Below the pieces are notes generated by a model. It did no database searches. It was not told the origin of the DNA and worked only from the letters and a program-made list of their open reading frames with translations. This document shows positions 8,525 to 64,000 of a DNA stretch of 64,000 bases, piece after piece; within the stretch, counting starts at the first letter, position 1, and the number at the start of each line of letters is the position of its first letter. Both the position numbers and the translations under genes were made by a program. The DNA is from an uncultured Anaerolineales bacterium (GTDB lineage: Bacteria; Chloroflexota; Anaerolineae; Anaerolineales; UBA11858). The stretch is from assembly GCA_964457375.1 (NCBI GenBank), contig CAYWFK010000004.1, forward strand, positions 8,499 to 72,498. Direction: 5' to 3'.

Positions 8525-8626
8525 ATTTCAATTGCACCGAACCGAAACATCAAGTATACTTGACAAAACAAACCGTCCTGCAACATTCTTTTTCATCAAC
8601 ACCCATCTATTCCAAGGAAAAAGCCC

Positions 8627-9448
8627 ATGTCCTTTGACGAACCCAGCCCCGAATTACTCCCCGTCAGCAATGAAACCAAATCACCGAAGCAAAACAAAAA
8701 CACCTGGATTTTCATCCTGATTGCGGCAATTGTCATCATTTGCCTTTGTCTCGTCGCACTGGCATTAGGATTCCAGGCGTATCGAATAGTCACCAGTGAA
8801 ACCAATACCCAAGATACGGGAACCGCTGAAGCCCAACAGGCGGAAAGCACATCCGGCGAAAGCATTCCCACCGATGAAATCGAAAGTTGGACATTGCTGG
8901 CAGACGAGCCGTATAACGAGAACGATTTGGACTGGGTAGAAGGAAATATCGATGATGAATATGTCAGCATGACATTGACCATCGACAACCATTATCTTTG
9001 GGAAGGCGTTACTCGCAAGGGTTTTGTCTGGCGTGCCTGGCCTGATTTGGATGACGTCAGTGATTTCTACCTAAGCGTCGACACACAAAACACGGGCACC
9101 AACAAAGATGCTTATTACGGTCTGGTTTTTCGCCAAACAGAAGATGATCAATACTACCTTTTCGATATTCGCGACAACGGCACCTATGAAATTTACAAAC
9201 ATCAACAAAACGAATGGATCGAACTGGTCTCTCTGACATCGACCGACACTATCAAGGCAGGAGAAACCAACAAGTTAAGTGTTATGGCTTGGGATGGCTG
9301 GTTCTCGTTCTACATCAACGGGATTCTCGTGCATCGTCTCGTCGAAGGCATTCCCCCCGAAGGGAAAGTTGGTGTTGCCGTCGGGGCAAGCAACGATGGT
9401 GATACATTCCGGATACTATTCGATAATTTCACCTTGCGGGTCCCGTAA
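8627..9448 (+). CDS. membrane-anchored protein with concanavalin-like (DUF1080/LamG-like) C-terminal domain
   Basis: N-terminal TM anchor (WIFILIAAIVIICLCLVALALGF). The C-terminal beta-rich region (YGLVFRQ..YYLFDI..G.YEIYK...FYINGILV) resembles DUF1080-type jelly-roll domains. Confidence 0.6.
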   Translation: MSFDEPSPELLPVSNETKSPKQNKNTWIFILIAAIVIICLCLVALALGFQAYRIVTSETNTQDTGTAEAQQAESTSGESIPTDEIESWTLLADEPYNENDLDWVEGNIDDEYVSMTLTIDNHYLWEGVTRKGFVWRAWPDLDDVSDFYLSVDTQNTGTNKDAYYGLVFRQTEDDQYYLFDIRDNGTYEIYKHQQNEWIELVSLTSTDTIKAGETNKLSVMAWDGWFSFYINGILVHRLVEGIPPEGKVGVAVGASNDGDTFRILFDNFTLRVP

Positions 9449-9556
9449 AAAGGAGACAATGCTCAGCCGGATCCTGCCCGAAGCTGTCTTTACTCCGGCA
9501 GAGCAGCACAATCGGGCTTCATCTCCATCCGGCAGAAACATATGGCAATCTCAGGA

Positions 9557-13000: not shown

Positions 13001-13226
13001 GACACCTTCGGAACCCGATTATTTCGCCTATCTCCTTCGTTTATGGACAGTTACAGAAAACGGGAAACTTATATGGTTGGCTTCTCTGGAAGACCCGCTT
13101 ACTTCCGAACGTAAAGGCTTCTCTTCGATTGAAAATTTGTATGCCTTTCTCGAAAAACAAATCTCGCTTTCTGAAGAGGAAAAAGCGCGCAATCAAGTTC
13201 ATGATTCCCGCGATGCCGGGGAATAA
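12999..13226 (+). CDS. small conserved-looking hypothetical protein (YLLRLW...ASLEDP...FSS.E.L..FL)
   Basis: 75-aa ORF that is the first gene of the operon divergent from the SARP regulator, 23 nt upstream of the next CDS. From memory the motif pattern resembles small ORFs seen beside STAND/LuxR regulators. There is no clear SD. Confidence 0.4.
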   Translation: MTPSEPDYFAYLLRLWTVTENGKLIWLASLEDPLTSERKGFSSIENLYAFLEKQISLSEEEKARNQVHDSRDAGE

Positions 13227-13249
13227 CACAACCATCAAGGAATAAAACC

Positions 13250-15046: not shown

Positions 15047-15076
15047 ACCCTGTTCCCCAAAACAAAGGAAAAAGTC

Positions 15077-16594
15077 ATGTTCCTGAAAACAGATGTCATC
15101 AAACGCCCACTTGAAAAAGGAATGCAAATCGTCAAAACGTGTTTACCATTCATGCTCATGGTAGTCATGGCAATCCCGATAAGCTTCTTCAACCGGGAAT
15201 CAGTCAGCGCCGCGCCGCAATCTACCTTCATCGTAGTCGCCGACGCTGATGATTCAAACGCCCATGATAAAAACCCAGGAGACGGTATTTGTGCCGACCA
15301 ATTGGATACCTGCACCTTGCGGGCTGCAATTGAAGAAGCAAACGCCCATCATGGCGCAGATACGATTACATTCTCTCAACAGATGTCCATTATGATCGAT
15401 AGTACAGAAGGCCCCCTGCCTGCCCTGGTCAAAACGGTGAAAATCGACGCCAGCAGCATGTGGAATACAACCCTCGACCAGCCGGGAGTAACAATCAATG
15501 GGAACGGCGCTCATTTCAACGGACTTCGAATTTCCGCCCTCTACTGTGAAGTTTACGGACTGACGATTAGAAATTTCTATTGGAGTGCTATTATCATCAA
15601 TACAAGCAACAACACCATTGGGGGCACAACGAAAACACAGAGAAACGTCATTTCCGCCAATGCAAATAACGGGATTGCCATCCTTGGCAATCAGGCGAAT
15701 TCGAACACAATTCAGGGGAACTTCATTGGCATCAATCCAAAGGGAAACGCAAAATTACCGAATAAACACAACGGCATTCTCATAAAAGACGGTGCATCTT
15801 ACAACAAGATTGTTTCCAATGTCATTTCCGGTAATCTTCTGGATGGTATTCTCATCCAGTCTTCCAATACGCAACTCAGCTACGGAAACAAAATCGGCAA
15901 CAATGTCATCGGTCTTTCTGATGACCTCGGCACAATAATTCCCAACAAAGGAAACGGCATCAGCATCATGTCATCACCGAATACAAAAATCGGCGGTCCC
16001 GGCCTTTCCGGAAATATGATTACCGGGAACAGTATCAACGGCATCTATCTTTTTGCATCAAACGATACCCTGATTCAAGATAACATCATCGCCGGAAACA
16101 ACCAGGATGGCATCTATATCCACAATAGCCAAAAAACGAATGTCCTTTCCAATATCATCGACAATCAGGAACAAAACGGGATACTCATCAATGGCAGCAC
16201 CGGGAGCACTGCCAACAAAAACAATCTCACCCGGAACAGTATTTATTCCAACAAAAAGAAAGGGATTTCCCTGATAGGGAACAGCAACAACAATATTCAA
16301 CCCCCAATCATCGGTTCCGCAAACAGCCACGGTGCAGCAGGAACCGTTCCCAATGGCGTCCGCATTGTCGCAGTTTTTTCAGATAGTGAGAATGAAGGGA
16401 AAATTTACCACGGGCAATGTATCGTCAATACAATCACCCACCAATGGTTTTATACCGGTGCGATTACCGGCCCGCATGTAACTGCACTCGCATATGACCT
16501 CGATGGCAATACATCCGAGTTCTCAACGCCTTACACAATCAGCAATCCGGGTAGTTACCAGATTTATCTGCCATTCGTCTTGCGCAACCCCTAA
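15077..16594 (+). CDS. secreted parallel beta-helix repeat protein with CSLREA-like N-terminal module and YLPFVLR tail
   Basis: Signal/anchor sequence, then GDGICADQLDTCTLRAAIEEANAHHGADTITF, a CSLREA-domain variant. More than 12 PbH1-like repeats follow (N.I.GN...GI.I). DLDGNTSEFS is present and the protein ends SYQIYLPFVLRNP. Confidence 0.8.
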   Translation: MFLKTDVIKRPLEKGMQIVKTCLPFMLMVVMAIPISFFNRESVSAAPQSTFIVVADADDSNAHDKNPGDGICADQLDTCTLRAAIEEANAHHGADTITFSQQMSIMIDSTEGPLPALVKTVKIDASSMWNTTLDQPGVTINGNGAHFNGLRISALYCEVYGLTIRNFYWSAIIINTSNNTIGGTTKTQRNVISANANNGIAILGNQANSNTIQGNFIGINPKGNAKLPNKHNGILIKDGASYNKIVSNVISGNLLDGILIQSSNTQLSYGNKIGNNVIGLSDDLGTIIPNKGNGISIMSSPNTKIGGPGLSGNMITGNSINGIYLFASNDTLIQDNIIAGNNQDGIYIHNSQKTNVLSNIIDNQEQNGILINGSTGSTANKNNLTRNSIYSNKKKGISLIGNSNNNIQPPIIGSANSHGAAGTVPNGVRIVAVFSDSENEGKIYHGQCIVNTITHQWFYTGAITGPHVTALAYDLDGNTSEFSTPYTISNPGSYQIYLPFVLRNP

Positions 16595-19729: not shown

Positions 19730-21406
19730 TTATGGCAATCCGCTGGCTTTGGCAGCCAAAGGAAGAAAAATAAACCACCCCGGATAAAAAGCGTTGTTCG
19801 AAACCCCCGACCAATCCCCATTTGTATTTTGTGTTTTCAGTGCAAAGTAAATCGTCGCATGCCCAACAGAAACGGCATCCGAGAAGAAATCCCGTGTGCC
19901 TGTCAACGAATCCGTCAACACGCTGGCAGCATGCCAGTTCTCATCGCTAATCAATCCGCCGCTATACCGCAGCGTTGTCGTAATTGCGAATTGCGGCGGT
20001 GTCCAGTGCAAGGTAAACGTCAGAACACCGCCCTTGCTGATAACATCGGTAAGCCGCAAATCGCCAATCGCTTGCGGCACCGGCAGAACATACTCATCCG
20101 CGCCAATATCCGCGGCACTGCCGGCAGGGCGTTCATCCCCGTCGAAATCATCGCGTACCTCCGGAAGCAAAGAAACCTGGTCGATATAAGAAACTGCATG
20201 CGGTTTCAGGTGCAGATCGCCGCCGGCGACATCCACAAAGGAAGCCATGGGAACATTTTCCCGGTTATCTGACAACACGGCACTGCCCCCACGGTCACGC
20301 AGATTGTGGCTCACCAGATTGTTTCTGATTTCAGCAGAAGTATGGCCAAAGCGCCATTCGATCGATGAAAACGGAGCAACAGTCGAGGCAACCGAATTAT
20401 GCAGCACTTTTGCACCACAAGCCTGTGCAAGGCAAATGCCGCAATCGAAGCCGAACGCCGAAGCAAACAAGGCGCTGCTTCCGGCTGAAACAAAGTTGTT
20501 GCGGATCATTCCGCCGTAATGTTCGACAAACCCGCCGCCGGCACCCGGGCAAGGATTATCCGCATATGTGCGGCCGCTTCCGTTTTCTGTCAATCCCAAA
20601 CCGATCCCCCGTGCATTGTCCATCAATTGATTGCGCTCAATCAGCGTATCTCTGCTGCCCCGCCAAAAGTGAATCCCGTGCTCCGAAAGCCCGCTTTCAC
20701 ACCAAAACCCCTCGATTAGATTATCGCGAATCAACCAGCCCCTTGCCTGATGGGCATCGATTCCCCCGGTGTAACAATCGTCATGGATATGCGAACGTCC
20801 CGCATTCGTCAAACGGATTACCGAACAGGCAACCGTACCGTCATCCGGAAAATGCGCCGAATCCACCGGGTTTATCTTGATTGCCTGCTGACCGGGATCG
20901 ATGATATGCACATTGTAAATCAATGTGCCGGTAACATCCGCTGATGAAGTAGACATCACGTGAATCGGATGGTGAACGGCTCTCCTTATCGTCAAGTCAG
21001 CTACGGTGGCATTCGAAGCCACAATCTGGATGATTTCATCGGACAGATAATTTCCATCGAGAACCACAGCATCCGGGTTTCCGCTCGCCGAACGCAGGGT
21101 AACACCAGCCGTATCGATACGCAGATACGCACCATCCAGCGAATAGTTTCCATCCGCCAGCAGAATTGTCGTGCTCACGGCAGCATGGTTGACCGCATCG
21201 ACAAGCCCGGTCACGTTATCAACGTGAACAACATTACCGGCAGCCATTGGCAGCACTCCGCAATGACGGCGCACCGTTCGAGGCGAGGCAGGCGCTTGCG
21301 AATACACGCGCACAGCCTGCACCCAGACTCCGGAAAACGCAACTGCCAGAAATAAAACAGGAAAAACAATCAGCAAACCGCGGAAGTGGATATTTTTGGT
21401 TTTCAT
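19730..21406 (-). CDS. secreted right-handed beta-helix protein with Fn3-like C-terminal domain and FLPLAAK tail
   Basis: Start at ATG 21406 (MKTKNIHFRGLLIVFPVLFLAVAFSG is the signal). Beta-helix repeats include NLIEGFWCESG..HGIHFW and RNQLMDNARGIGLG. DIGADEY is present and the protein ends GWFIFLPLAAKASGLP. Confidence 0.8.
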   Translation of the reverse strand: MKTKNIHFRGLLIVFPVLFLAVAFSGVWVQAVRVYSQAPASPRTVRRHCGVLPMAAGNVVHVDNVTGLVDAVNHAAVSTTILLADGNYSLDGAYLRIDTAGVTLRSASGNPDAVVLDGNYLSDEIIQIVASNATVADLTIRRAVHHPIHVMSTSSADVTGTLIYNVHIIDPGQQAIKINPVDSAHFPDDGTVACSVIRLTNAGRSHIHDDCYTGGIDAHQARGWLIRDNLIEGFWCESGLSEHGIHFWRGSRDTLIERNQLMDNARGIGLGLTENGSGRTYADNPCPGAGGGFVEHYGGMIRNNFVSAGSSALFASAFGFDCGICLAQACGAKVLHNSVASTVAPFSSIEWRFGHTSAEIRNNLVSHNLRDRGGSAVLSDNRENVPMASFVDVAGGDLHLKPHAVSYIDQVSLLPEVRDDFDGDERPAGSAADIGADEYVLPVPQAIGDLRLTDVISKGGVLTFTLHWTPPQFAITTTLRYSGGLISDENWHAASVLTDSLTGTRDFFSDAVSVGHATIYFALKTQNTNGDWSGVSNNAFYPGWFIFLPLAAKASGLP

Positions 21407-21426
21407 GCCTGTCCGTTCCTTGCCAT

Positions 21427-23790
21427 TCAAGGCAAATAACCGCGAAAGATCACGGGAAGATATTGCATCGCCCCGCCAACCAGCAGACGGGCAATCGCGG
21501 TTCGTATGTCACCGTTGCTTTTTCCGTCGACAGGTACGGCATACCAGACGCCCGGCGAGGTTAACACAGTATGCGTATCGGTCATCGTCAAGCGGGCGGT
21601 ATTCCCCGGGTTCACCTGCAACGGTGTCAGATAAACGTCCAAACCGGCCATCGTAATGGGCACACTCAGGCTGACTGTTCCGGTAAACCCGCCGACAGCC
21701 CGCACACTTACAGTAAAAACCGCCGTCTCCCCCGGGGCGATTTGCATCACGGGGGGCAGCACATCAAGCGCAAAACCGCTGCCCTCATATTCGAAAGCGC
21801 CAATATCCGGGGCGCTGCCATTGAAGGCATCATTGATACCGGGAAGTACCACGCCCGCATCGATCAAACTACTGGATTCCCCCAGCGTATAATCCGCAGA
21901 AGCGGCATCAACAAAACCCGGTTTGGCATCCGTTCCATGCTGCTCTTGCCCGGTCTTCGTTCGAAACACATTCAAAGAGCGCATATGCCGATCCGGACCG
22001 CTTCCCCAATAAACATACTCATCCGGATTGGATGTATACAGATCATCGTAATCGAAATTGATTGGCTGGGTTTCATTATAATCGTTCAATGCATAATTCG
22101 TCCCTGCCCAGATATTGTTACGGCTGACAATGTTTTTCCAGCTGCCGGGTGCCTTGATGTAAATACCATTGTTCCCAGGCAGCGCCGCATCGCTGGTGTT
22201 ATGAAACAAATACATCACGCCCGATTTCCCGTAACCGCTGTTGAACTTGAACGGGCTTCCCGAAAAGGTATTGTTTCCCGCACCGGTATGATAAATCAGG
22301 TTGCGAATGACAAAGACAGGTCCTTTATAGACCGGTGCCAGAGAAATGCCCATCAGAACATCATGAAAAGTATTCGACCAGATGCGCACATTGCTGCAAG
22401 TGCCGTCGGTTTCCACACCGTCATCACCCGCGTTGTAAACCAGATTTTCGTAAAAATCAGTTTCGCTCGTCTCGCTCCCGGCCGTCTCAGGGCATATCCC
22501 CAGGCCATCGAAATAATCATGAAAAGAATTGCGTCGAATCACATTTCCCCGCCCGGTCATCGGGCTATAAAACCGAACTCCGCCGGTTTCCAGCCTGCTT
22601 CCTCCCTTGACAGCATGCCAATCCCATTGAAAATCCGTATCGCGAAAAGTATTATGCTGAATCAGGTTACGGTTCGAATTGCGTTTGAACCCGATACCCA
22701 GATCATTGAGTTCGAAAGTGCAATGCTGAACCAGATTATCGTTCGCATTATTGAAATACAGCGCCTTTGCCCAATTCCCCCGGCCATAATGCCGAAAAAC
22801 AAGATGATCGAAATAAATTGCGTCCTGTTCGATTGCGAAAGCATAATTGAAACGTGAAACCACAATCGCAGCACTGCTCGGGTTTTTGTCGCCGGCCAGA
22901 TGCACATACAAAACCTTGCCGTTTGCATAAAAACCGGGAATTCCCCAAACCAGGTTTTGCAAATCGGAAAGGCTTTGATAAGGATAAAGCCGCTGCCCGT
23001 CAGCGGTCACCAAATGCGTATCAGGCGCATGAACATTTGTCCGGTAGATACCCCCGCCCTGATCCTGCCAGGAAAACGTCGCCGGATCTCCTCCGTCGAG
23101 AATCGCCTTCTCACCGGTATAACTGCGAATGACGATTGGCGCACCGGCGCCCCCCGAACAAGGCATATCCATTTCTCCGCGGTAATAAACACCCCCTCGC
23201 AAAACCACCGCATCACCCGCATGCGCCATACCCAGCGCTTGCTCCAGCGCACAGGGCGCAGCCAGCGAGCAAACCATCCCGGAGCCGTCCGGGCTGGCAA
23301 CGAAGGTATGCAGCGGAGCAGGCAGGGACAATTCCGGGCGTGTTACTCCCGAAGCATCGAGAACGGTTCCGTTTAACGGGCCATTGTCCGGGTCTGCCAA
23401 AGAAACCCGCACAACCACCTGCTCTGCCGGTTTCAGCCAGAAGATGCTGCCGGCAAAACGCGTTGCCGATATGCGGGTAAGTGGGAAACCCTGCCGGTAT
23501 CCACCGCCCGCACCTTCCCGGTAGGTCAGTGTAGCCGTGGCATCCTCGTCCGGGTCATCATTTGCGTCAATTGCAACGATAACACCCATCGAATGATAAT
23601 TCCCGAAAAGCGAAAGCGCTGCTGCCGCAGGCGCCAACGAATTTGAGACGTCTCCGTGTTGCATTTGCCCCGCGCGCACGGAACTTGTATCTTCGGCTTG
23701 CGCGGCAATCACACCGGCGCGGGTAACCATTACTGTCAAAACCAATATAACAACCGGCAAACCAAACCGATACCACTTTGTTTGTATCAT
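21427..23790 (-). CDS. secreted right-handed beta-helix (pectate-lyase-fold) protein with Ig-like domains and YLPVIFR tail
   Basis: Signal peptide MIQTKWYRFGLPVVILVLTVMVTRAGVIAAQA. There is a long beta-helix region (NLVQHCTFELNDLGIGF, NLIQHNTF, IRRNSFHD, RIWSNTFHD). PDIGAFEYEG is present, followed by an Ig-like C-terminal domain, and the protein ends AMQYLPVIFRGYLP. Confidence 0.8.
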   Translation of the reverse strand: MIQTKWYRFGLPVVILVLTVMVTRAGVIAAQAEDTSSVRAGQMQHGDVSNSLAPAAAALSLFGNYHSMGVIVAIDANDDPDEDATATLTYREGAGGGYRQGFPLTRISATRFAGSIFWLKPAEQVVVRVSLADPDNGPLNGTVLDASGVTRPELSLPAPLHTFVASPDGSGMVCSLAAPCALEQALGMAHAGDAVVLRGGVYYRGEMDMPCSGGAGAPIVIRSYTGEKAILDGGDPATFSWQDQGGGIYRTNVHAPDTHLVTADGQRLYPYQSLSDLQNLVWGIPGFYANGKVLYVHLAGDKNPSSAAIVVSRFNYAFAIEQDAIYFDHLVFRHYGRGNWAKALYFNNANDNLVQHCTFELNDLGIGFKRNSNRNLIQHNTFRDTDFQWDWHAVKGGSRLETGGVRFYSPMTGRGNVIRRNSFHDYFDGLGICPETAGSETSETDFYENLVYNAGDDGVETDGTCSNVRIWSNTFHDVLMGISLAPVYKGPVFVIRNLIYHTGAGNNTFSGSPFKFNSGYGKSGVMYLFHNTSDAALPGNNGIYIKAPGSWKNIVSRNNIWAGTNYALNDYNETQPINFDYDDLYTSNPDEYVYWGSGPDRHMRSLNVFRTKTGQEQHGTDAKPGFVDAASADYTLGESSSLIDAGVVLPGINDAFNGSAPDIGAFEYEGSGFALDVLPPVMQIAPGETAVFTVSVRAVGGFTGTVSLSVPITMAGLDVYLTPLQVNPGNTARLTMTDTHTVLTSPGVWYAVPVDGKSNGDIRTAIARLLVGGAMQYLPVIFRGYLP

Positions 23791-23985
23791 TGGGGTACTT
23801 TCATCGAATAGTTTCCGGACAGATTCTTTCGATAAGATTCAATCCTATTAAAGAAGAAACGGGGTCTCCCGTCAATCCGACCGGAGTACTACAAAAAACA
23901 GACCTGCCTCCCAAAGACGCGATAATACCGGCGCAAAAGACAACACCGGCAAAGCTCCTGCTGTTTTCGGGGATTTCCCGCCGCC

Positions 23986-54939: not shown

Positions 54940-55109
54940 GGGTCGTGGCACTCCTTCCACCAATTTATCATCCGGTAATCATCGCCGCGTTCCGCAACAA
55001 GAGGCGAACACCGGATTAGCGTGTATTGTACCGCGGACACTTCGGCTTAAAGCAGACAAGGGCATTGCCTTCGCAACGCCCTTGAGTTCTTCCGGGAGAA
55101 GTCCCGATG

Positions 55110-56009
55110 TTAATCATCGTTTTGGCAATCACCATTCCCGTGCCTGCCGTGCATGCCCCCACGCCGTCCGCGGCCATCAGTGTTACCGCTGTTTTCACGG
55201 CCATAACCATGCCCGCCCCGGGCTGCCTGCACAATCGTCTGATAGGCGTTCGCATCCATGTACTGCGGTTGATATGCATTCCCCGTTTGTTGAAGATAAT
55301 TCGTGGAAAAAGCACGCAAGTGATTTTCCGAACCGCGTTCCAGGTTTTCGAAAACCTGCTTGATATTGTCATCATCCGTTGCAGCCAGGTACTTTTGCAA
55401 ATCAAGGATATCGATTTCTTCAATCGCGCCGCCGACTTTCAAGGCATCACTGATGGATTTTTCACCCTGCGCTACAAGCTTGTCATACAGCGATTGCAAA
55501 TCCGGATTGGTAAAGACACCCCGCTGCTCACTTGCCGGGTCATCCAGCTGATAACCATCCAGCAAAATCTTGACCGCATCCATGTGCCGCTGTTCGCTGC
55601 GGGAAATATTCGCAAACACCTGCAAACCCCACTTGTCGTAAAGCGCCAGATAGACATCGCGGGCAAGTTTTTCTTCTTCCCGCATGTAAGTCAGCCCTTC
55701 CGCTTCCTTCTCATCCAGGCCGGATTTGTCGAAGACGAATGACGTATGCCCGACTTCATAACCGGAACCTTGCCGGCCATATCCCCGGAAAGTATTACCC
55801 GTTTTGTCATCACGGTTTCTGCCCTCGCCTTGTCGTCCTCTGCGCCCATATCCGCCGCCTTCCCATTGATCACCGGGCCGTGCAGTCTGCCAGGCAAATC
55901 GTTCTGGCGCATTCGCTGAAACATTTTGCGTATTCTGATAAACGGCAAAGCCTACTGCGCCGAGAACGAAAAATGCCGCGATTCCAACCAATAATTTGTT
56001 CAACATCAT
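55110..56009 (-). CDS. membrane-anchored ferritin-like DUF2202 protein with Gly/Arg/His-rich flanks
   Basis: TM anchor, then a G/R-rich linker. The core LTYMREEEKLARDVYLALYDKWG...FANISRSEQRHMDAV is duplicated (IEEIDILDL...ENLERGSENHLRAF), as in DUF2202. The tail is rich in G, R and H. Confidence 0.7.
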   Translation of the reverse strand: MMLNKLLVGIAAFFVLGAVGFAVYQNTQNVSANAPERFAWQTARPGDQWEGGGYGRRGRQGEGRNRDDKTGNTFRGYGRQGSGYEVGHTSFVFDKSGLDEKEAEGLTYMREEEKLARDVYLALYDKWGLQVFANISRSEQRHMDAVKILLDGYQLDDPASEQRGVFTNPDLQSLYDKLVAQGEKSISDALKVGGAIEEIDILDLQKYLAATDDDNIKQVFENLERGSENHLRAFSTNYLQQTGNAYQPQYMDANAYQTIVQAARGGHGYGRENSGNTDGRGRRGGMHGRHGNGDCQNDD

Positions 56010-56272
56010 ATACCTCCATAGGTGTACTTTTTACTGAAACCGATTGACCATACTTGTTTGTCAATCTGCATATAGCTTACTCGTCAGTTATGAAGAATTG
56101 ATGAAGAACTTTTGCCCGTTTGATGAAGATCAATTTGTCATGCTGTCAGGCAATTAACATCCGAATTCCCATCTCACACCTGCCGTCACTAATTGGCTCG
56201 CCCCACAAAACCGGTATGCTTCCTTTCCAATAATCAACCCTTCGCTAAAAATGCCCTGTCTGAGGAGCCCGC

Positions 56273-56300
56273 TTGACAGAAACACAAATAGAAATATAAT
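56273..56300 (+). promoter_or_regulatory. consensus sigma70-type promoter TTGACA-16 nt-TATAAT of the marR operon
   Basis: Both hexamers are perfect and read directly. The -10 ends 34 nt upstream of ATG 56335. Confidence 0.7.
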
Positions 56301-56317
56301 TAGTTCGACTAACTAAT
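56299..56317. promoter_or_regulatory. inverted repeat ATTAGTT-cgact-AACTAAT, probable MarR operator
   Basis: The 7-bp arms overlap the end of the -10 box and the predicted transcription start. This is the typical position for MarR autoregulation. Confidence 0.55.
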
Positions 56318-56334
56318 CAATCAAGGCAGTGACA

Positions 56335-56790
56335 ATGGAAAAGTCCGGAACAATTGACCCCAGAAAATATATCCTTTTATTCGAACGCCTGAGAAAACTC
56401 GGGCCTGGAACTCAACCCTGTGAAGATGCAGGGATTACACCCCCTCAATTCCTCCTTTTGGATTGGGTCGGGAGAAATCCCGGAAGCAGCCTGAGCGAAA
56501 TTGCCCATGGGCTGCGGCTGACACCGCCCACAGTCAGCGTAGCGGTTCGCCGGCTGGAAAAATCGGGCTTTCTCGAACGCAAGCCCGACCCGCACGACAA
56601 ACGCTCGATTCAAATCCATTTAACACAAACGGGCAAGGTTCTATACCAAAAAGGAGAGACTTACCGTTTACGCAAGGTCGAACACCTTCTCTCAGCGCTC
56701 GCTCCGGAAGACAGAAAACAATTCATCATCCTTCTCGAACGGGCTGTCAACGCTGCCGAAGCATTCAACAAGGAGAAAAGTCATGGTTAA
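56335..56790 (+). CDS. MarR family transcriptional regulator
   Basis: Winged-helix region ITPPQFLLLDWVGRNPGSSLSEIAHGLRLTPPTVSVAVRRLEKSGFLERKPDPHDKR. Confidence 0.85.
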   Translation: MEKSGTIDPRKYILLFERLRKLGPGTQPCEDAGITPPQFLLLDWVGRNPGSSLSEIAHGLRLTPPTVSVAVRRLEKSGFLERKPDPHDKRSIQIHLTQTGKVLYQKGETYRLRKVEHLLSALAPEDRKQFIILLERAVNAAEAFNKEKSHG

Positions 56791-57064
56791 AATTCTTAGC
56801 AAGTGGTTCCGAAAAATACACCGCTGGATTGCCGTCCCCACAGCAATCCTTATTCCGATTGCATTCATTCTCAAATTCACAAGCGGGCCCGGAAAGCATT
56901 TTCCGCCTCAATTCGAGCAGTTCCAATCGATACTGATGCTCAGTCTGGCAGTAACAGGCAGTTACCTCTTCCTGCTCCCCTACCTCATGAAATGGATTCG
57001 CAAAAGAAGGCCGGCAAGACGCGCCCATAAACAACCCGCACCACCATCAAGGAGAAAAATGTGA
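56783..57064 (+). CDS. small membrane protein
   Basis: 93 aa with 2 TM helices. AAGGAG SD. The start overlaps the end of marR. Confidence 0.55.
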   Translation: MVKILSKWFRKIHRWIAVPTAILIPIAFILKFTSGPGKHFPPQFEQFQSILMLSLAVTGSYLFLLPYLMKWIRKRRPARRAHKQPAPPSRRKM

Positions 57065-57450
57065 AATCCGTCCTGACGAAAATTGCAGCAGTTCTGGCAG
57101 CCTTCATTGGTGCCCTTTCGGTCTATTCCGGATCCCAGGTTGTACTCTTCGGCAAGGTCATGAACTATTATGTCATCGACTGGCTGCCTGTTTACAACCT
57201 GATTGCGGGACTCGTTTCCGTCTGCATCACAGCTGTATTAATCTGGCGAGGGCACAAAGCCGCAATGCCGGCAGCCATTGCCACCCTTTTGGCGCACGGC
57301 ACCGTCATGTTCATTCTCCAAACCGCCTACGGAAAGGTCGTTGCAGCGGAAAGCATCAAAGCCACGATAGTCAGGATTACTTTCTGGATCATCATTCTTG
57401 CACTGCTTTATGCGCAGTCTGTCAAAAACAAAACCCGCCCCGCTGGCTGA
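57061..57450 (+). CDS. hypothetical membrane protein
   Basis: 129 aa with 4 TM helices. The GTG start overlaps the upstream stop and lies behind AAGGAG. Confidence 0.55.
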   Translation: MKSVLTKIAAVLAAFIGALSVYSGSQVVLFGKVMNYYVIDWLPVYNLIAGLVSVCITAVLIWRGHKAAMPAAIATLLAHGTVMFILQTAYGKVVAAESIKATIVRITFWIIILALLYAQSVKNKTRPAG

Positions 57451-57478
57451 ACCGCCCGGGAAAATCAAATCCGAATCG

Positions 57479-57523
57479 AACCGAAGCGCAAGCGGTCATT
57501 ACAGTTTGCGCTTCGGTTTTTTG
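57479..57523 (+). terminator. rho-independent terminator of the marR operon
   Basis: AACCGAAGCGCAA-14 nt-TTGCGCTTCGGTT is a 13-bp stem followed by TTTTTTG. Confidence 0.8.
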
Positions 57524-57554
57524 TGAAACCACCGGTCAAACCGGCGAAAACGGA

Positions 57555-58931
57555 TTACTTGCCTTTTGCAACCAAAGGCAAAAAGACCGGCAATCCCTGA
57601 TGCGCCACTTTCAGATTGCCTTTGGCTGGTAAAAGATATTTGTTAAGTTCCCGATAAGCGATTTTTGCCAAACCCGCCGAATTGACATCCACGGCAACCC
57701 CCATACCTTCATCTACCCAGGAATTTCCCCTATCCACAACTTCGCAATACCATGAAAAGAAAGGGTTTTGGGGACCGCAATTGGTTTTTCCCGGAAGGGC
57801 GGCAATTGCGCTGCCCGGTCTGGCAACCTTTACCACTGCCGGGGCAGAAGAGACAGCAACACTTTGATAAGCAATCAACGGGTAACCGTTTCCGTCTTTC
57901 ACAATAGCCATGCCCATTGGCTTGGCACTCGAACCGACATCATCGATTTTTTCACACTGCCACTCCCAGTGCATCGACACACTGCTGAAACCACAATTCC
58001 CGCCGGTGCCGATATAAGCCGCATATTCCAGGGTGGAACTTGTCACGTTTTGATACGCAATGTGTGGCGTACCGTTGTTCTCCACATACAGCGAAACGAA
58101 CTTGCCGGTATCCAGCGTGTTTTGCTTCACGCTCCTGCTCACCCAGAGTGACCCGGTGTAGGATACGACCACCGGTGTTTTGTTCGTCGAATGGTAATAA
58201 GCCACCGATGGTTTTCCATTCGCATCGATATCAAGCGAAGCATAATAACCGACACCTTTTCCTGATGCCACAACGTCACATTGCCACTTATTGAGAACAA
58301 TACCGGTACCGCAATTACCGGTCCCGTTACCCACATAATGCGCCACGATAAGTTCTTTCGATAATGCTGTGCTATGCTGGTAGGCAACATAAGGAACCCC
58401 ATTGGTATTAAATTTCACCGAGGTATATTTACCATAATACGACAAAACCGATAAGGAAGACTGAACCTTGTACCGATTCCAGTTCAGCCCGCTGGAAACA
58501 TTATTGCCAAGGATGTAGTACAAACCGTGATTGGTTGCATCGTAATACGTAATGATGAATTTCACACCGTTTAAGGTATGTATCGTATCGATCGAATTGT
58601 ACATACCCACATCGCCGCTGGAAACAAGTTTATGACAATGCCACATATTCGCCGGCCCGCAATTTCCGGCTTTCCCGTCGAAAATGGCAAGATACAGGTC
58701 TTTTCCTGCTGCATCGTAATAACTGACAAAGATCTGTCCGGTTACCGGTTCGACAGAAATCGCCACATGCTCACTCACATCAGGCGTCTTATCAATTCGA
58801 TTGATAACCCAACGTGCATTTCCCAGCGATTGAGGCGGTATGACCGATAAGGTTTTCGCAAAACCCGTCAAGATCAAAACGCCCGAAAACACCAGAGAAA
58901 CCAAAATAGCCGCAAGTCGTTTCGTTTTCAT
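57555..58931 (-). CDS. secreted 7-blade beta-propeller-like repeat protein with Cys loops and FLPLVAK tail (paralogue 1)
   Basis: Start at ATG 58931 behind GAGGAG. After the signal/anchor come seven repeats of about 45-60 aa (G.Y.S...D..G.P.IAY...L..A). Four repeats carry a [GT]NCG-x(4-10)-W-x-C loop. The protein ends LPVFLPLVAKGK. Confidence 0.8.
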   Translation of the reverse strand: MKTKRLAAILVSLVFSGVLILTGFAKTLSVIPPQSLGNARWVINRIDKTPDVSEHVAISVEPVTGQIFVSYYDAAGKDLYLAIFDGKAGNCGPANMWHCHKLVSSGDVGMYNSIDTIHTLNGVKFIITYYDATNHGLYYILGNNVSSGLNWNRYKVQSSLSVLSYYGKYTSVKFNTNGVPYVAYQHSTALSKELIVAHYVGNGTGNCGTGIVLNKWQCDVVASGKGVGYYASLDIDANGKPSVAYYHSTNKTPVVVSYTGSLWVSRSVKQNTLDTGKFVSLYVENNGTPHIAYQNVTSSTLEYAAYIGTGGNCGFSSVSMHWEWQCEKIDDVGSSAKPMGMAIVKDGNGYPLIAYQSVAVSSAPAVVKVARPGSAIAALPGKTNCGPQNPFFSWYCEVVDRGNSWVDEGMGVAVDVNSAGLAKIAYRELNKYLLPAKGNLKVAHQGLPVFLPLVAKGK

Positions 58932-59380
58932 TACGATTCTCCTCTCTCCAAACAAACCCATACGCGCAAGCCACATCAGAGACTTGCTTTACGCATTTAA
59001 TAGAATGGGAATCGCATCTTTGTTTTCCCCCGCGCACTTAATCTTCGTAAAATCCCGAAGCAAAGTTACAAAATCACAGTGATGAATGAGCTGTTCGTCA
59101 CAATCATCATCATAAAAATACCAAATTAACGTACAAATGTCAAATATACTTTTGGGCAGCCATAAACTACAATGAGTTGCACACGCTCAGTTTTTCATCA
59201 ATCCCACTACGCTTTCTCTGAAAACCGGAAAAATGATTAGTTGGTGAACCCGGTCAACAGCCATTCATGCGGGAACAATTCCCGGCAGGCGTTACCGGCA
59301 AAACATCAATCATAGCGATGATGCACATTTTCAGCATTCCGCGAAAATCGATAAAATCGCCATCTCGCCACAAACGACAA

Positions 59381-59412
59381 GCGCAAGCCCGGGAAAACCG
59401 TCCGGCTTGCGC
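59381..59412 (-). terminator. probable terminator of paralogue 2
   Basis: On the minus strand a GCGCAAGCCGG / CCGGGCTTGCGC stem with one bulge is followed by TTGTCGTTTG. Confidence 0.5.
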
Positions 59413-59481
59413 CTTGGTTGTTGATACATGCTCCGAATTGTTTTCGGGTCTGCTCTGTTTTCGCCCTATTCAGCAGCCGGT

Positions 59482-60888
59482 TTATTTGCTCTTCGCGACC
59501 AGCGGCAAATACAGGAACAAATGCTGTGCAGCGACTTTCAAGCGCCCCTTGTCCGGCGTTTCATACGTATCCAGTTCCTGATAAGCCACCACAGGTAAAT
59601 TCGCCGAGTTCATCGCCACGGATACAGACGAACCCTCCTCCGTATAGGTATTTATCCCGGCATCTACATAATCACAATACCACGTATGAAATCCCAAAAA
59701 CAGTGGCCCGCAATTCGTTTTGTAGAGAGAAACACCTGCCGCCACTTTCGGGCGGGCAATTTTCACTGCCGGCTGCACCTGAGCTTCCGCGCCATATTGA
59801 TAAGCGATCACCGGCAATCCGTGTGCATCACCGACCAGCGACAACCCCATCGGAATGCTCCCCGCGCCAACATCCTCGATTTCTCCGCAATCCCACTCCG
59901 AACGAAGCGTGATACTGTTGTATCCGCAGTTCCCTCCCGAACCGACATAACTGGCATACTCCACCGTACCTTTTGTTTCATTGTGATACGCAATATGAGC
60001 AACATTGCCATTATCTACGAACAATGAAACATCCCTGCCCGTTTTGTCGGTGCCGTTTTTAACATCCCGCAAAAGCCAGCTGGTGCCATCGAAACCCGCC
60101 ACCACCGGGATATTTTTATTTGCATCGTAATACGCAATTACAGGATGACCCGCACTGTCGAAATCCAGCGCAGCGTTGATACCTACCCCCTGCCCGCTGG
60201 CAACCGTATCACACTGCCACTGTCCCGCTTCGTCGCCTTCGCCGCAATTTCCCGTACCGTCCCCAACGAAATGCGCAAGCATTTGTTTGCTCGATGAAAG
60301 AAGAGACCGATTGTAAGCAATATACGGTATCCCGTTTTTATTGAATTTCAATGAGGTATATTGCCCGGTGCGATTCGTAATGATCGCACTCGATTGAACT
60401 TTACTTGCCAACCAGGAAAAACCGGAAGATTGATTGAACCCGCTAATATACTTCAGCCCGCGGTTTGTTGCATCATAATAGGATATGCCAAACTCGACAC
60501 CATCCGGGTTGCCAAGCGTATCAATCGAATTGAACTTCCCGACGTCGCCGACCGAATCAAGTTTGTGGCAATGCCAGGTGTTTCCCGGACCACAGTCACC
60601 TTTCTTGCCATCGTAAATTGCCAAATACAAATCTTTGCCGGCTTGATCATAATAACTGACAAAAATCTGGCCCGAAGACGGCTCTATGGATAGAGAAACA
60701 TACTCACCGACGTTTCTGGTGCCGTCGATCGTACTCAGCACCCATTGAGCATCCGGGTATGCTATTGCACTTGCCATCCGGGATTCGTGGTTTGCCTCAT
60801 GCACCGAAGCCTGAACAAGCCTTGTTCCTGCCACCCAGACAATCAATAAACCCAATGTCATCCCGATGACAACCGCTTTTTTCTTCAT
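59482..60888 (-). CDS. secreted 7-blade beta-propeller-like repeat protein with Cys loops and YLPLVAK tail (paralogue 2)
   Basis: Start at ATG 60888 behind AAGGAG. It has the same repeat architecture as 57555..58931. In the N-terminal block I hand-aligned, 73 of 107 positions are identical. The protein ends LFLYLPLVAKSK. Confidence 0.8.
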   Translation of the reverse strand: MKKKAVVIGMTLGLLIVWVAGTRLVQASVHEANHESRMASAIAYPDAQWVLSTIDGTRNVGEYVSLSIEPSSGQIFVSYYDQAGKDLYLAIYDGKKGDCGPGNTWHCHKLDSVGDVGKFNSIDTLGNPDGVEFGISYYDATNRGLKYISGFNQSSGFSWLASKVQSSAIITNRTGQYTSLKFNKNGIPYIAYNRSLLSSSKQMLAHFVGDGTGNCGEGDEAGQWQCDTVASGQGVGINAALDFDSAGHPVIAYYDANKNIPVVAGFDGTSWLLRDVKNGTDKTGRDVSLFVDNGNVAHIAYHNETKGTVEYASYVGSGGNCGYNSITLRSEWDCGEIEDVGAGSIPMGLSLVGDAHGLPVIAYQYGAEAQVQPAVKIARPKVAAGVSLYKTNCGPLFLGFHTWYCDYVDAGINTYTEEGSSVSVAMNSANLPVVAYQELDTYETPDKGRLKVAAQHLFLYLPLVAKSK

Positions 60889-61205
60889 ACTACTCTCCTT
60901 GGAATGTTCCCGAATACTTGTTATTCCTAATAAAACAAATCGGGGATATACGGATTCAATCAATTACGGCTCCTTATATCTCGCCCGTTTATCATAATAC
61001 AATTCTATTAGTCTGACACAATTGTTCCCAAACAATATCACCAGAACGCTGAAAATCCCCCTGTTTACCACATCCATAAGTACTAAAACACAACACCTAT
61101 TTTTCGGTTATAATCCAATATCAACAACACCCCCCGATAACTATCATCATCGTTCACTCCTTTCATCCCCACAGATAAGTCTTTTCTGGAAATCAGGAGG
61201 CAAAT

Positions 61206-62453
61206 ATGCCGAACAAAAGAATTTGGGTCATTGCAGGAATCCTGCTGCTTGTTTGCTTGATAGAAGTACCTTTTGTATTTGCATCAACCACAATTACCGT
61301 CGACACGACCGATGATGAATTTAACACAGACGGGGATTGTTCCTTGCGAGAGGCAATCCATGCAGCAGACACGGATACCGCCGTCGATAACTGCCCGGCA
61401 GGGAACGGGAACGATACCATCATCCTCCCTGCGGGTATTTATACCCTGACAGTAGCTGGTGCCAGCGAAAACCATGGGCTGACCGGCGATCTGGATATCC
61501 GCACCACAGACGGGCTAACGATACAAGGTGCAGATGTTTCGAATACAATCATCGACGGAGGCGGTATCGACCGGGTTTTCCATGTCGTTTCTTACAATGA
61601 CCGCCTTACTCTAAAAAAAATGACAATCCGCCATGGTTCCCCTCCAAGCGGGGAAAGTGCAGGCGGCATTCTCAACAATGGCATTCTTGTATTGGACCAC
61701 GTCGTTGTAAAAGATTCTGAAACAAAATCCACACCCAGCCAGAACCCTGTCGGCGGCGGCATTTGTAACGGTTGCGGCAACGGAACAGGAGTGTTAACGC
61801 TGGTCGATACGATCATCTCGGGGAACGAGTCTACACGTGGCGGCGGGATTTTCACCAACCACATCCTGACTATAACGCACAGCACCATCACCGCTAACAA
61901 AGCGAAATCAGGCGGTGGACTGGTAAACTACGGCAATGTCTCCATCATCAATTCAACCGTAAGCAATAACTCGGTAACCCATTCCACTTCGAATATCATG
62001 CACCTGAACAATTTTCTCACGATAACAAATTCAACAATCGATGGAATTTCTTCCCCGCCACACACATTCAACATCTACGCAATGTCTGCGGCGACGATGA
62101 CAATCGTCAACACCATCGTGACGAACGACCCTGCAAACTACAATTGTTCTGCTTACACAAACACGGTTCGATCACTCGGGCACAATCTTGACAATGGGAA
62201 CACATGCCATTTTTCCGCCACGGGCGATTTGACCAACACCAACCCCCTGCTTGGTCCTCTTGCGTCCAATGGCGGTGCGACCCCTACACATGCACTATTA
62301 ACCGGAAGCCCGGCGATCGATGCCGGAGATAACACCTACTGCCCGCAGACCGACCAGCGCTGGTTTTCCAGGCCTTTCGGATCAGCCTGCGATATCGGTG
62401 CGTTCGAGTTTTCGCTTCCGAAAATTTACCTGCCCTTTGTGCTGAAAAACTGA
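61206..62453 (+). CDS. secreted CSLREA-domain parallel beta-helix protein (choice-of-anchor-Q-like) with YLPFVLK tail
   Basis: Signal peptide, then the literal motif DGDCSLREAIHAA and beta-helix repeats. The C-terminal block GHNLDNGNTCHF..GDL...NPLLGPLASNGGATPTHALL.GSPAIDAG ... CDIGAFEF follows. The protein ends LPKIYLPFVLKN. AGGAGG SD. Confidence 0.85.
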   Translation: MPNKRIWVIAGILLLVCLIEVPFVFASTTITVDTTDDEFNTDGDCSLREAIHAADTDTAVDNCPAGNGNDTIILPAGIYTLTVAGASENHGLTGDLDIRTTDGLTIQGADVSNTIIDGGGIDRVFHVVSYNDRLTLKKMTIRHGSPPSGESAGGILNNGILVLDHVVVKDSETKSTPSQNPVGGGICNGCGNGTGVLTLVDTIISGNESTRGGGIFTNHILTITHSTITANKAKSGGGLVNYGNVSIINSTVSNNSVTHSTSNIMHLNNFLTITNSTIDGISSPPHTFNIYAMSAATMTIVNTIVTNDPANYNCSAYTNTVRSLGHNLDNGNTCHFSATGDLTNTNPLLGPLASNGGATPTHALLTGSPAIDAGDNTYCPQTDQRWFSRPFGSACDIGAFEFSLPKIYLPFVLKN

Positions 62454-62487
62454 GCAGCCGGAAGTTTGTCAACCGGTAAGAATACAA

Positions 62488-62527
62488 AAACCGCTGTTCC
62501 CTGATTGAAGCCTCGGAACAGCGGTTT
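62488..62527. terminator. bidirectional rho-independent terminator
   Basis: AAACCGCTGTTCC-14 nt-GGAACAGCGGTTT is a 13-bp stem followed by CTTTCT. It lies between the convergent genes 61206..62453 and 62597..63067. Confidence 0.75.
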
Positions 62528-62596
62528 CTTTCTCCGTCCTCATCGTCCGTCCTCATCCCGAAAATGTTTCCGGGGTCTTTCGCCTCAATGCGGCAA

Positions 62597-63067
62597 TCAG
62601 GCGATACCGATGAAATCCCGCAGTTTTTGTGCTTTTTCCTGCTTCTTTTTCAATCCGCCGGTGTACATTCCTTGCAAAGGAACAATTTTTCCGTCTTTCT
62701 GATGCACTTCGATCCGGTAAGTCTTCGTGCCGTCTTCATTGTCGTAGGATGTGCCAATCTGTATGGTCGCAATATCCTCGAACAGGATTTCATCCGTCGA
62801 TTTGGTCAGCAGCGAACGGCTGGAAACAATCAGCACACGGTCATTCTTATCTGCTGTAACCGCCACAGACGTGGAAATAAGCAAAACGATAATCGCAAAC
62901 ACAGTGACGATAACCGCCCCAATCCATTGCTTCGGATTGTTGAAGAAAATATACCCCGCCACGAAGAACAAAAAAACGCCCACAACCCAGCTGATAATCG
63001 GCTTCTCATGAAATGTCAATTTGTTTTGTGTAATCTTCATTTTGTTTTCTCGCTTTCTTTCGCTCAT
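62597..63067 (-). CDS. hypothetical membrane protein
   Basis: Two N-terminal TM helices plus a small beta-rich C-domain. The start is uncertain: ATG 63067, ATG 63040 or the upstream 63139. Confidence 0.5.
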   Translation of the reverse strand: MSERKRENKMKITQNKLTFHEKPIISWVVGVFLFFVAGYIFFNNPKQWIGAVIVTVFAIIVLLISTSVAVTADKNDRVLIVSSRSLLTKSTDEILFEDIATIQIGTSYDNEDGTKTYRIEVHQKDGKIVPLQGMYTGGLKKKQEKAQKLRDFIGIA

Positions 63068-63323
63068 GGTAGTTTGAAGCCGCCGAAGAAAACGCGTTGC
63101 ATTTTCCGGCAATAATGCTTCGGGTTGTTTTCCCTTCAACCCCCTGAAAATTCAGCGGGATGATTTCCGCTGCTCACACGTAAATAGAAAGCGATTTTTC
63201 AACCGGAGAGAGGCAAACCCAAAGATCATCGCCTGTTCCGGGCTGCACACGCATGCCGAAAGTCAAACCGCTTTCAGCATGCATATACCTAGTCAACAAA
63301 ATGATTGTTTGCCATCCACCCGG

Positions 63324-63677
63324 CTATTGTTCCGGTTGGTATATCATCGTCCGCACAGCATGGTTATGCTCATCACAAAAAACAACTTTTGCAGGTTCCA
63401 TCGAATCGCCAATCTGAAAAGTCATCAAAATGCACTTGTCCCCCACCTCGCCCAGGCGCGCTGCCGCGCCATTGAGGGCAAACTCCCCGTCTTCGCCGGG
63501 GAACAGATACGTAATCCATCGCTGCCCGTTGGATACATTGACGACCTGTACCTGCTCATAAACTTGCATACCTGCCATTTCCAGCAGTTTCCGGTCTACG
63601 GTAACGCTGCCGTTATAATGCAGGGACTTGCTTGTAATACGGATTCCGTGAATCTTGCCGCCAACAAATGTTCTCAT
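63324..63677 (-). CDS. panD: aspartate 1-decarboxylase proenzyme
   Basis: MRTFVGGKIHGIRITSKSLHYNGSVTVD carries the self-cleavage G-S within HYxGS, and NGAAA occurs later. Start at the internal ATG 63677. Confidence 0.9.
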   Translation of the reverse strand: MRTFVGGKIHGIRITSKSLHYNGSVTVDRKLLEMAGMQVYEQVQVVNVSNGQRWITYLFPGEDGEFALNGAAARLGEVGDKCILMTFQIGDSMEPAKVVFCDEHNHAVRTMIYQPEQ

Positions 63678-63844
63678 AAAATAAACCTGTTCCTTTTTAT
63701 AGTAATCGAACCTTATTTTATCGTGATTCCCGATTCCGCGCAAAGCATCTCTACATTTTCTATCAAAGAAAAGCAGCCGGCAGAATATCTCAATCTGCCG
63801 GCTGCCTGCATCGATATCACCACAGGAACTATCCCCGAAATGAA

Positions 63845-64000
63845 TTACACCACTTTCTGGATAATCTTTCCGCTTGCCTTCTCTTTGAGGATATATTTCA
63901 TCCTGCCATCCGGCATCTTTTCCGACTTGATCAAAAAATGCTCGGCATCGAACTCTTCCAGAGCAACTTCGCTTTCGACAGCGTCCTCCCCGCGCCAGTC
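63845..64000 (-). CDS. 3' end of an unidentified CDS truncated by the window edge
   Basis: An open frame of 52 codons runs from the window edge to TAA at 63845-63847 (..EEFDAEHFLIKSEKMPDGRMKYILKEKASGKIIQKVV*). No family recognised. Confidence 0.35.
   Translation of the reverse strand, partial: DWRGEDAVESEVALEEFDAEHFLIKSEKMPDGRMKYILKEKASGKIIQKVV

Follow-up and report, generated by a model that had tools for sequence, protein, structure and literature searches.

Two adjacent genes on the minus strand of a 64,000-nucleotide stretch of DNA from an uncultured Anaerolineales bacterium (positions 8499-72498 of contig C4, in a genome of 2.95 Mb that is 96.6% complete; hereafter the window) encode paralogous proteins, P0001 and P0002, which are predicted to fold as seven-bladed propellers with cysteine-framed loops and to carry a secretion signal and a short C-terminal tail of the YLP type. 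These propellers are members of a real, unannotated family. Then, what could such proteins do? The reading that we favour, with confidence that is evenly balanced, is that they are surface-displayed, non-catalytic binding (lectin-like) modules, for which export, display and ligand binding are inferred. Nothing is overturned: fold, export logic and tail each belong to a known kind. An original prediction, made from the sequence of the window, had placed three open reading frames (ORFs) here, namely the two propeller genes and a divergent gene, P0003, with a CSLREA motif, and all three were recovered at its coordinates (Table 1).

Propeller fold, cysteine loops and paralogy

Seven repeats had been read in each paralogue, and a propeller had been proposed on that basis; both points have been borne out. 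The core S-[LI]-x-x-D-x-x-G-x-P-x-[IV]-A-Y occurs in seven repeats of about 50-70 amino acids (aa) each, and the consensus of a single blade can be written as W....VD..G.VG.Y.SL.LD..G.P.IAYYD.TNGDLKYA (alignment A3). The AlphaFold2 models of the two paralogues, for which an alignment of 39 homologues (A1) was used, each contain 28 long strands, that is, seven four-stranded blades, and the Foldseek search described below likewise supports the seven-bladed propeller. The mean predicted local distance difference test (pLDDT) and predicted template modelling (pTM) scores are 90.8 and 0.88 for P0001, and 89.1 and 0.87 for P0002, respectively; an N-terminal helix in both models is of low confidence.

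Each mature paralogue contains exactly 8 cysteines, all of which lie inside four loops that follow the pattern [GT][ND]CG-x(4-10)-W-x-C. The four loops of paralogue 1 read letter for letter as they had been given in the original prediction, and paralogue 2 has four counterparts (Table 1). In every loop the chain leaves the outer strand of a blade (D, the last) and enters the inner strand (A, the first) of the blade that follows. That the loops all lie on the same face of the propeller would follow only from this topology in the models, and this face could serve as the binding surface.

The conservation of the loops was assessed in 92 stand-alone members (clustered at no more than 50% identity), which comprise the 39 homologues of A1 together with cluster representatives (50% identity) taken from the exhaustive search described in the next section. 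The four pairs of cysteines are conserved at 100/100, 100/100, 95/92 and 98/99%, respectively, as the original prediction would have them. In addition, two optional pairs occur, one at the junction of blades 2 and 3 (both cysteines in 46 members, neither in 40, a single one in 6) and the other at the junction of blades 4 and 5 (74, 16 and 2, respectively). The mature cysteine counts are even in the overwhelming majority, being 8, 10 or 12; the window paralogues represent the family minimum of four loops, and most members have five or six. Since the optional cysteines are gained and lost together, the pairs fit with intraloop disulfides. A VKOR-family domain (93 bits; contig C46:2143-2520, plus strand, locus L034), which lies within a 474-aa ORF, is likely to belong to the extracytoplasmic disulfide-forming enzyme of this organism, and its presence in the genome makes the formation of such disulfides plausible. 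In the alignment of 39 homologues, the loop interiors are variable in both length and sequence and the G-N-C-G and W-x-C frames are fixed. The stapled variable loops are the foremost candidates for determinants of specificity.

The two minus-strand genes are clear paralogues, as had been claimed, with 54% identity over 423 aa (E 4e-165). The high identity of the first conserved block has been confirmed as well; however, the count of 73 identical positions out of 107 has not, since a recount gives 70-71/107. A trace of the duplication is retained at the DNA level as a direct repeat of 191 nt, 71% identical, with a spacing of 1933 nt. In the maximum-likelihood tree, P0001, P0002, P0005 and P0006 form one clade (support 100/100), within which P0002 is sister to the others. 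Between P0001 and P0002 the proportion of synonymous differences (pS) is 0.79 and that of nonsynonymous differences (pN) is 0.33. Because pS is saturated, a dN/dS ratio between the paralogues cannot be given; for the same reason, and with such a pN, the values indicate that the duplication is old and that both copies have been under long-term purifying selection. The inner-loop codons have a pN of 0.47 compared with 0.33 elsewhere, but they number 27, which is too few to claim diversifying selection. A third, distant paralogue with Cys loops was found elsewhere in the genome (C91:2666-4015, plus strand, locus L008; 465-aa ORF with the tail YYPVYLPFVVK), on a long branch of the family tree. There is also a 453-aa ORF (stop to stop) on contig C42 (locus L009:952-2310, plus strand), with a signal-peptide-like segment, the tail IFIPMVVSSK and a different blade repeat, which is free of cysteines and of the type P.IA.D..G..H..Y, and whose match to the family profile is weak (E 0.0016). 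This ORF probably encodes a further propeller that ends in a tail of the YLP type.

Extent and modular use of the family

The original prediction could assign the repeat to no named family, and neither paralogue scores above threshold with any Pfam or NCBIfam model. Scans of all 39 aligned homologues with both collections gave nothing above threshold, and phmmer and profile searches of the Protein Data Bank (PDB) sequences with the propellers detected no homologous solved structure. The three findings that would have spoken against the original prediction, that is, the lack of a propeller, a match to a characterised family and unconserved cysteines, did not appear.

A word-indexed search gave 69 homologues at E <= 1e-3, nearly all of which are unnamed metagenomic proteins, with one labelled Anaerolineales. 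At E <= 1e-3 the exhaustive profile search gave 22,111 cluster representatives, of which 5,173 also passed E <= 1e-30, and many of the matches are giant proteins of up to 6,384 aa that are matched in many stretches. By these profile matches, the blade is the repeating unit of an unnamed superfamily of very large size. The Cys-stapled stand-alone form of about 460 aa, to which about 70 of the 150 best representatives in the exhaustive search belong, is a distinct subfamily.

Based on the labels of its relatives (Anaerolineales or Ardenticatenales), the propeller family is mainly found in the Chloroflexota. Among 401 Chloroflexota genomes sampled, full-length orthologues are present in 3 and the repeat is present in 23. 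The blade repeat also occurs in metagenome-assembled genomes (MAGs) labelled WOR-3, Bacteroidota, Deltaproteobacteria, Acidobacteria and CPR (candidate phyla radiation). One MAG labelled uncultured Acidobacteria carries a stand-alone homologue (L038:3665-5215) with 29% identity, three Cys loops and the tail SLPLVKK, which may reflect either a binning error or the occurrence of family and tail beyond the Chloroflexota.

A single Cys-loop propeller also forms the N-terminal module of four larger, putatively exported proteins. It is followed by an fn3/PKD/Big stalk in P0094, by CARDB repeats in P0148, by Peptidase_C25, a PQQ-type propeller and fn3 in P0188, and by CBM96, thermolysin M4 and TSP3 in P0214. 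A YLP-type tail is found at the end of P0094, P0188 and P0214, and in P0148 the motif is located about 30 residues before the end.

The family is coherent; its stand-alone form makes up some 90 clusters or more at 50% identity, and the underlying blade repeat recurs in more than 20,000 clusters. Its hallmark would be a seven-bladed propeller with up to six disulfide-stapled inter-blade loops. A domain model, which the family merits, would make many hypothetical proteins of Chloroflexota, as well as the N-terminal modules of secreted proteases and adhesin-like proteins, recognisable as putative surface-binding modules.

Proposed function of the propellers

The Foldseek search of the PDB with both paralogue models gave as best neighbours the Photorhabdus PLL/PHL lectins, with E values from 3e-10 to 2e-9, template modelling (TM) scores of about 0.5 on the query and 0.64-0.69 on the target, and 11-14% identity. 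These 'bangle' lectins (PDB 5c9l, 5mxf, 6rg2, 8q81) are likewise single-domain proteins with seven blades of four strands each, and they are extracellular and non-catalytic, as is proposed for the window propellers. However, no sequence homology between the two groups is detectable by phmmer or by profile searches of the PDB sequences, and the lectins are about 100 residues smaller and carry neither intraloop Cys staples nor a YLP tail. Another feature of the lectins is their inter-blade sugar sites of paired Trp residues. They are multivalent, with sugar sites that lie between the blades, and PHL has a single intersubunit disulfide (PMC5584973).

In the mechanism that we propose, each propeller would be made with a Sec signal peptide and would fold outside the cytoplasm, where four intraloop disulfides would lock links between successive blades, each of which joins an outermost strand to the innermost strand that follows. 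The YLP-box tail, a putative sorting tag of many exported proteins in Chloroflexota, would then keep the propeller at the cell surface or direct it there. The surface propeller would act as a non-catalytic binding module, whose ligand would most likely be a glycan or another polymer. Specificity would be set by the loops, which differ in length and sequence and which the invariant staples would hold in place, and two diverged copies could provide two specificities. The neighbouring CSLREA/choice-of-anchor-Q protein would be another cargo of the tail system and not a demonstrated partner.

Binding without catalysis is favoured because no catalytic-type residue is conserved among the 92 members: at a level of 85% or more, His, Arg, Lys and Glu are all missing from the conserved positions, which are occupied by framework residues (Gly, Trp, Cys, Tyr, Ala, Pro, Ser and the repeat Asp). 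A binding module is also suggested by the use of the propeller as an N-terminal accessory module, which is typical of lectin-like or CBM-like domains, and by its nearest structural neighbours, which are multivalent lectins. In addition, candidate adhesive tip cluster 16 of predicted fibrillar adhesins, which overlaps with BNR_4 and whose function was judged to be ambiguous or adhesive (Monzon et al., 2022, PMC9210967), points in the same direction. By description, this cluster is similar to P0094, P0148 and P0188 in having an N-terminal propeller-type domain before a stalk, whereas the window propellers are stand-alone and have no stalk. Furthermore, the gene neighbourhoods are not conserved beyond close relatives, and therefore provide no enzyme-pathway context.

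Several points weigh against this reading. The match to the lectins is generic, as the TM score on the query and the low identity given above indicate, and GH145, PL42, PL24/25 and sialidases score nearly as well in the same search. The weak sequence signals favour BNR_4/GH145 over the lectins. The catalytic histidine of GH145 is itself poorly conserved (PMC8377490), so the missing invariant residues are no proof of non-catalysis and an enzyme should not be dismissed. The tails of P0001 and P0002 (FLPLVAKGK and YLPLVAKSK), unlike that of P0003, give no match to the YLP-box models NF050076 and NF053834 at E <= 10; they nonetheless conform to [FY]LPLV..K at the very C-terminus. A search for RNA runs containing the propeller locus found none. 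Moreover, paralogue 1 is disrupted in a sister population represented by a JGI contig (3300033146, locus L033) with 99.2% identity to positions 55000-63900 of the window, and is thus dispensable at least there. In that contig, the gene (L033:7957-9290) has lost 45 bp in frame (gene nt 527-571), and with them a strand of blade 3, has gained an insertion of GG (2 bp) at nt 911, and is split into ORFs of 329 and 120 aa, while paralogue 2 has a Y-to-C change in its YLP tail.

The alternatives may be weighed against the same evidence. One of them, to which we give a modest share of the likelihood and which we regard as unlikely, is that the propellers are structural or scaffold parts of the Chloroflexota envelope, such as a surface layer or sheath, or platforms for protein-protein contacts. 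A robust extracellular structural protein would be well served by a disulfide-stapled and highly conserved framework, the proteins with YLP-boxes are a large envelope-directed class with 26 representatives in this genome, some relatives with multiple repeats are thousands of residues long, and some homologues are located near genes related to peptidoglycan (YkuD transpeptidase, Ddl and alanine racemase). However, orthologues in 3 of 401 Chloroflexota genomes are too sporadic for a core component of the envelope, one copy is broken in the sister population, and no conserved partner gene was found in the compared neighbourhoods.

Could the propellers be carbohydrate-active enzymes instead? They would then be distant relatives of the BNR_4 type (GH145 rhamnosidase, PL42, PL24/PL25) or of the sialidases, acting on an extracellular polysaccharide, which seems distinctly improbable to us. 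BNR_4 is the Pfam family of GH145 and PL42 and adopts a seven-bladed propeller (PMC8377490). Besides the shared number of blades, GH145 (5mul, 5mum, 5mvh), PL42 FoRham1 (7esk), 4irt, the PL24/25 ulvan lyases and sialidases were listed by Foldseek at E values from 1e-9 to 1e-6, with about 1e-9 for the BNR_4 propellers. The Pfam model BNR_4 (PF15892; gathering threshold 27.3 bits) has sub-threshold matches in 7 of the 39 homologues (best E 0.0011) and reaches 90.8 bits on the multi-repeat relative P0141. When the single-blade profile was searched against the PDB, BT3686 (GH145) ranked first at E 0.031, with matches blade by blade, four in all, of the type S..D..G.P.I.Y, and the blade core S-x-x-D-x-x-G-x-hydrophobic-I-x-Y is common to BT3686 and the window propellers. 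One homologue, too, adjoins genes for a pectate lyase, GH3 and an apiosidase. Against these resemblances, the same model matches neither P0001 nor P0002 at E <= 1, nor anything in the whole genome at E <= 0.01, although it does match in Bacteroides thetaiotaomicron; the family hidden Markov model (built from A1) found none of the true BNR_4 ORFs of related genomes; and hhalign gave a probability of 4.4% for A1 against a 25-sequence BNR_4 alignment (A4) and of less than 1% against single BNR_4 proteins. Membership in BNR_4 was therefore rejected, and the resemblance in fold and blade motif remains. The blade motif S-[LI]-x-x-D-x-x-G-x-P is one residue longer than the BNR_4 Asp-box SxDxGxTW and is without T-W, and neither the Cys-stapled loops nor the YLP tail is a BNR_4 feature. 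GH145, PL42, PL24 and PL25 have a catalytic His, or His/Tyr with Arg, in a central cleft, whereas the propeller family alignment contains no such conserved set. It should also be noted that the other neighbourhoods are without carbohydrate genes, and that the domain serves as an accessory module in fusions with proteases.

That the pair is a decaying duplicate, or consists of functionless ORFs that are artefacts of annotation, is hardly credible: the 45-bp deletion and the frameshift in the sister contig would suit it, but both window copies are intact, the intact form being backed by agreeing Logan contigs from two runs (X1 and X2), the pN of 0.33 against the saturated pS of 0.79 speaks for long-term purifying selection, all structural residues and Cys pairs are retained, and both AlphaFold2 models are of high confidence. 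Other roles for the propellers would take up what remains of the likelihood beyond the binding, structural and enzymatic ones.

The YLP-type tail and the locus

As the original prediction noticed, all three proteins carry the same kind of tail, with C-termini of the form [FY]LP[LF]V..K/N. By its pattern the tail is not new, and corresponds to the YLP-box already present in NCBIfam (NF050076, NF053834), an ultrashort C-terminal [FY]LP[LF].. tail with a basic last residue on Chloroflexota proteins with signal peptides, with which the propellers agree in sequence pattern. A search of the literature found no paper on the YLP-box motif. In the genome, the C-terminal pattern [FYW][LIV]P[LFMIV]..[KRQ] is shared by 26 ORFs with a length of 150 aa or more, compared with a mean of 1.1 at 20 control offsets, which is an enrichment of about 23-fold, and most of them have signal-peptide-like N-termini. 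In the window, four more ORFs have YLP-type tails, located at 13205-15046 (plus strand, IYIPFVIKSQ), 15047-16594 (plus strand, IYLPFVLRNP), 19730-21508 (minus strand, FIFLPLAAKASGLP) and 21427-23838 (minus strand, QYLPVIFRGYLP), and these make up the first secretome island that the original prediction implied. The tail of the second of them matches NF050076 (sort_motif_YLP) at 15.1 bits (cut-off 15). The propeller itself was rejected as a candidate for the YLP-box machinery, given full-length orthologues in 3 of 401 Chloroflexota genomes. The propellers could serve as well-behaved single-domain cargo for the study of the tail.

The motifs originally read in P0003 are both present, that is, CSLREA in DGDCSLREAIHAA and the block NGG..T.THAL..GSPAIDAG in NGGATPTHALLTGSPAIDAG. 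The identification of P0003 as rhombotarget A (TIGR04212) was rejected, with 38.3 bits against an equivalog cut-off of 295. The tail of P0003 directly follows the choice-of-anchor Q domain, and this placement fits with a tail in the position of a sorting signal. Compared with other choice-of-anchor Q proteins, the putative anchor of P0003 is the YLP-box and not one of the sorting signals associated with the domain.

About 10 of the 92 stand-alone members (P0024, P0026, P0028, P0046, P0139, P0159, P0166, P0169, P0189 and P0197) have another tail in place of the YLP-box, of the form [IL]F.DGF[EG].G....W[ST]..., which may be a second ultrashort C-terminal tag. It has no match in NCBIfam and is absent from the genome of the window. 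On contig L035, a propeller homologue and an adjacent, otherwise unrelated secreted protein of 206 aa (7123-7743; 8001-9461) share this alternative tail. It is conceivable, if doubtful, that the propeller is a 'choice-of-anchor' cargo, in which the YLP-box is exchanged for a second ultrashort tail, [IL]F-x-D-G-F-[EG]-x-G-x4-W-[ST]-x2-3-COOH. If this tail were to act as another sorting tag, one that lacks a transmembrane segment, matched cargo pairs would be available in the family, and these could reveal the machineries that read the tags by means of phylogenetic profiling.

The coordinates of the features are listed in Table 1. The start of paralogue 1 at MKTKRL is backed by the invariant M1 in the family alignment, and a gap of 317 bp separates paralogue 2 from the start of P0003, which is on the other strand. 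The inverted repeat downstream of paralogue 1 is probably an intrinsic terminator; a scan of the locus for promoters and terminators gave no excess over the shuffled expectation, and RNA elements were looked for in its intergenic regions and none was found. The MarR-type regulator and the two small membrane proteins (56329-57450) probably form one operon, because the starts and stops of neighbouring ORFs overlap. Sequence near-identical to the window is contained in epibiont and hydrothermal-vent metagenomes.

Table 1. Features of the propeller locus, with positions in the window
Feature	Position	Strand	Basis or remarks
Propeller paralogue 1 (P0001, 458 aa + stop)	57555-58931 incl. stop (57558-58931 coding)	-	signal peptide, 7 blades, 4 Cys loops, YLP-type tail
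Propeller paralogue 2 (P0002, 468 aa + stop)	59482-60888 incl. stop (59485-60888 coding)	-	ORF, translation, AlphaFold2 model
P0003 (415 aa + stop), divergent secreted beta-helix-type protein	61206-62453 incl. stop (61206-62450 coding)	+	CSLREA N-terminal, choice-of-anchor Q, YLP-box tail
Predicted Sec signal peptide, paralogue 1 (MKTKRLAAILVSLVFSGVLILTGFA)	58857-58931	-	sequence: basic n-region then hydrophobic h-region; cleavage site inferred
Cys loop 1, paralogue 1 (GNCGPANMWHC; C91-C99)	58635-58667	-	blade 1-2 junction; both Cys in 92/92 homologues
Cys loop 2, paralogue 1 (GNCGTGIVLNKWQC; C207-C218)	58278-58319	-	blade 3-4 junction; both Cys in 92/92 homologues
Cys loop 3, paralogue 1 (GNCGFSSVSMHWEWQC; C313-C326)	57954-58001	-	blade 5-6 junction; both Cys in 85/92, neither in 5, one in 2
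Cys loop 4, paralogue 1 (TNCGPQNPFFSWYC; C385-C396)	57744-57785	-	blade 6-7 junction; Cys in 90/92 and 91/92
YLP-type tail, paralogue 1 (VFLPLVAKGK)	57558-57587	-	Pro kept in 97% of 92 homologues
Predicted Sec signal peptide, paralogue 2 (MKKKAVVIGMTLGLLIVWVAGTRLVQA)	60808-60888	-	read from sequence
Cys loop 1, paralogue 2 (GDCGPGNTWHC)	60568-60600	-	
Cys loop 2, paralogue 2 (GNCGEGDEAGQWQC)	60211-60252	-	
Cys loop 3, paralogue 2 (GNCGYNSITLRSEWDC)	59887-59934	-	
Cys loop 4, paralogue 2 (TNCGPLFLGFHTWYC)	59674-59718	-	
YLP-type tail, paralogue 2 (LYLPLVAKSK)	59485-59514	-	
CSLREA_Nterm domain, P0003 (ITVDTTDDEFNTDGDCSLREAIHAA)	61293-61367	+	residues 30-54; TIGR04214 32.7 bits (cut-off 25)
Choice-of-anchor Q domain, P0003 (includes NGGATPTHALLTGSPAIDAG)	62241-62411	+	residues 346-402; NF041518 102.7 bits (cut-off 25)
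YLP-box tail, P0003 (KIYLPFVLKN)	62421-62450	+	NF053834 ultrashort_CTERM 12.1 bits (cut-off 10), 27-aa C-terminal fragment
Inverted repeat, 18-nt arms, then TTTTTT	57479-57518	none	between convergent membrane-protein gene and paralogue 1
MarR-type regulator	56329-56790	+	ORF; convergent with paralogue 1
Two small membrane proteins	56783-57064 and 57061-57450	+	ORFs; convergent with paralogue 1

The neighbourhoods of the propeller genes were compared at eight loci. The synteny with the MarR-type regulator and the two membrane proteins is found at L004 and L033, that is, in close relatives only, and the arrangement is absent beside more distant homologues. As the neighbourhoods vary beyond close relatives, a conserved operon partner was rejected. 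The other compared neighbourhoods are without a beta-helix or CSLREA neighbour, except that a truncated CSLREA homologue adjoins the propeller gene at L004 and that a beta-helix neighbour with a YLP tail occurs in the window, in the near-identical L033, and at L010 and L011. These recurring beta-helix neighbours can be explained by a clustering of genes for tail-bearing cargo.

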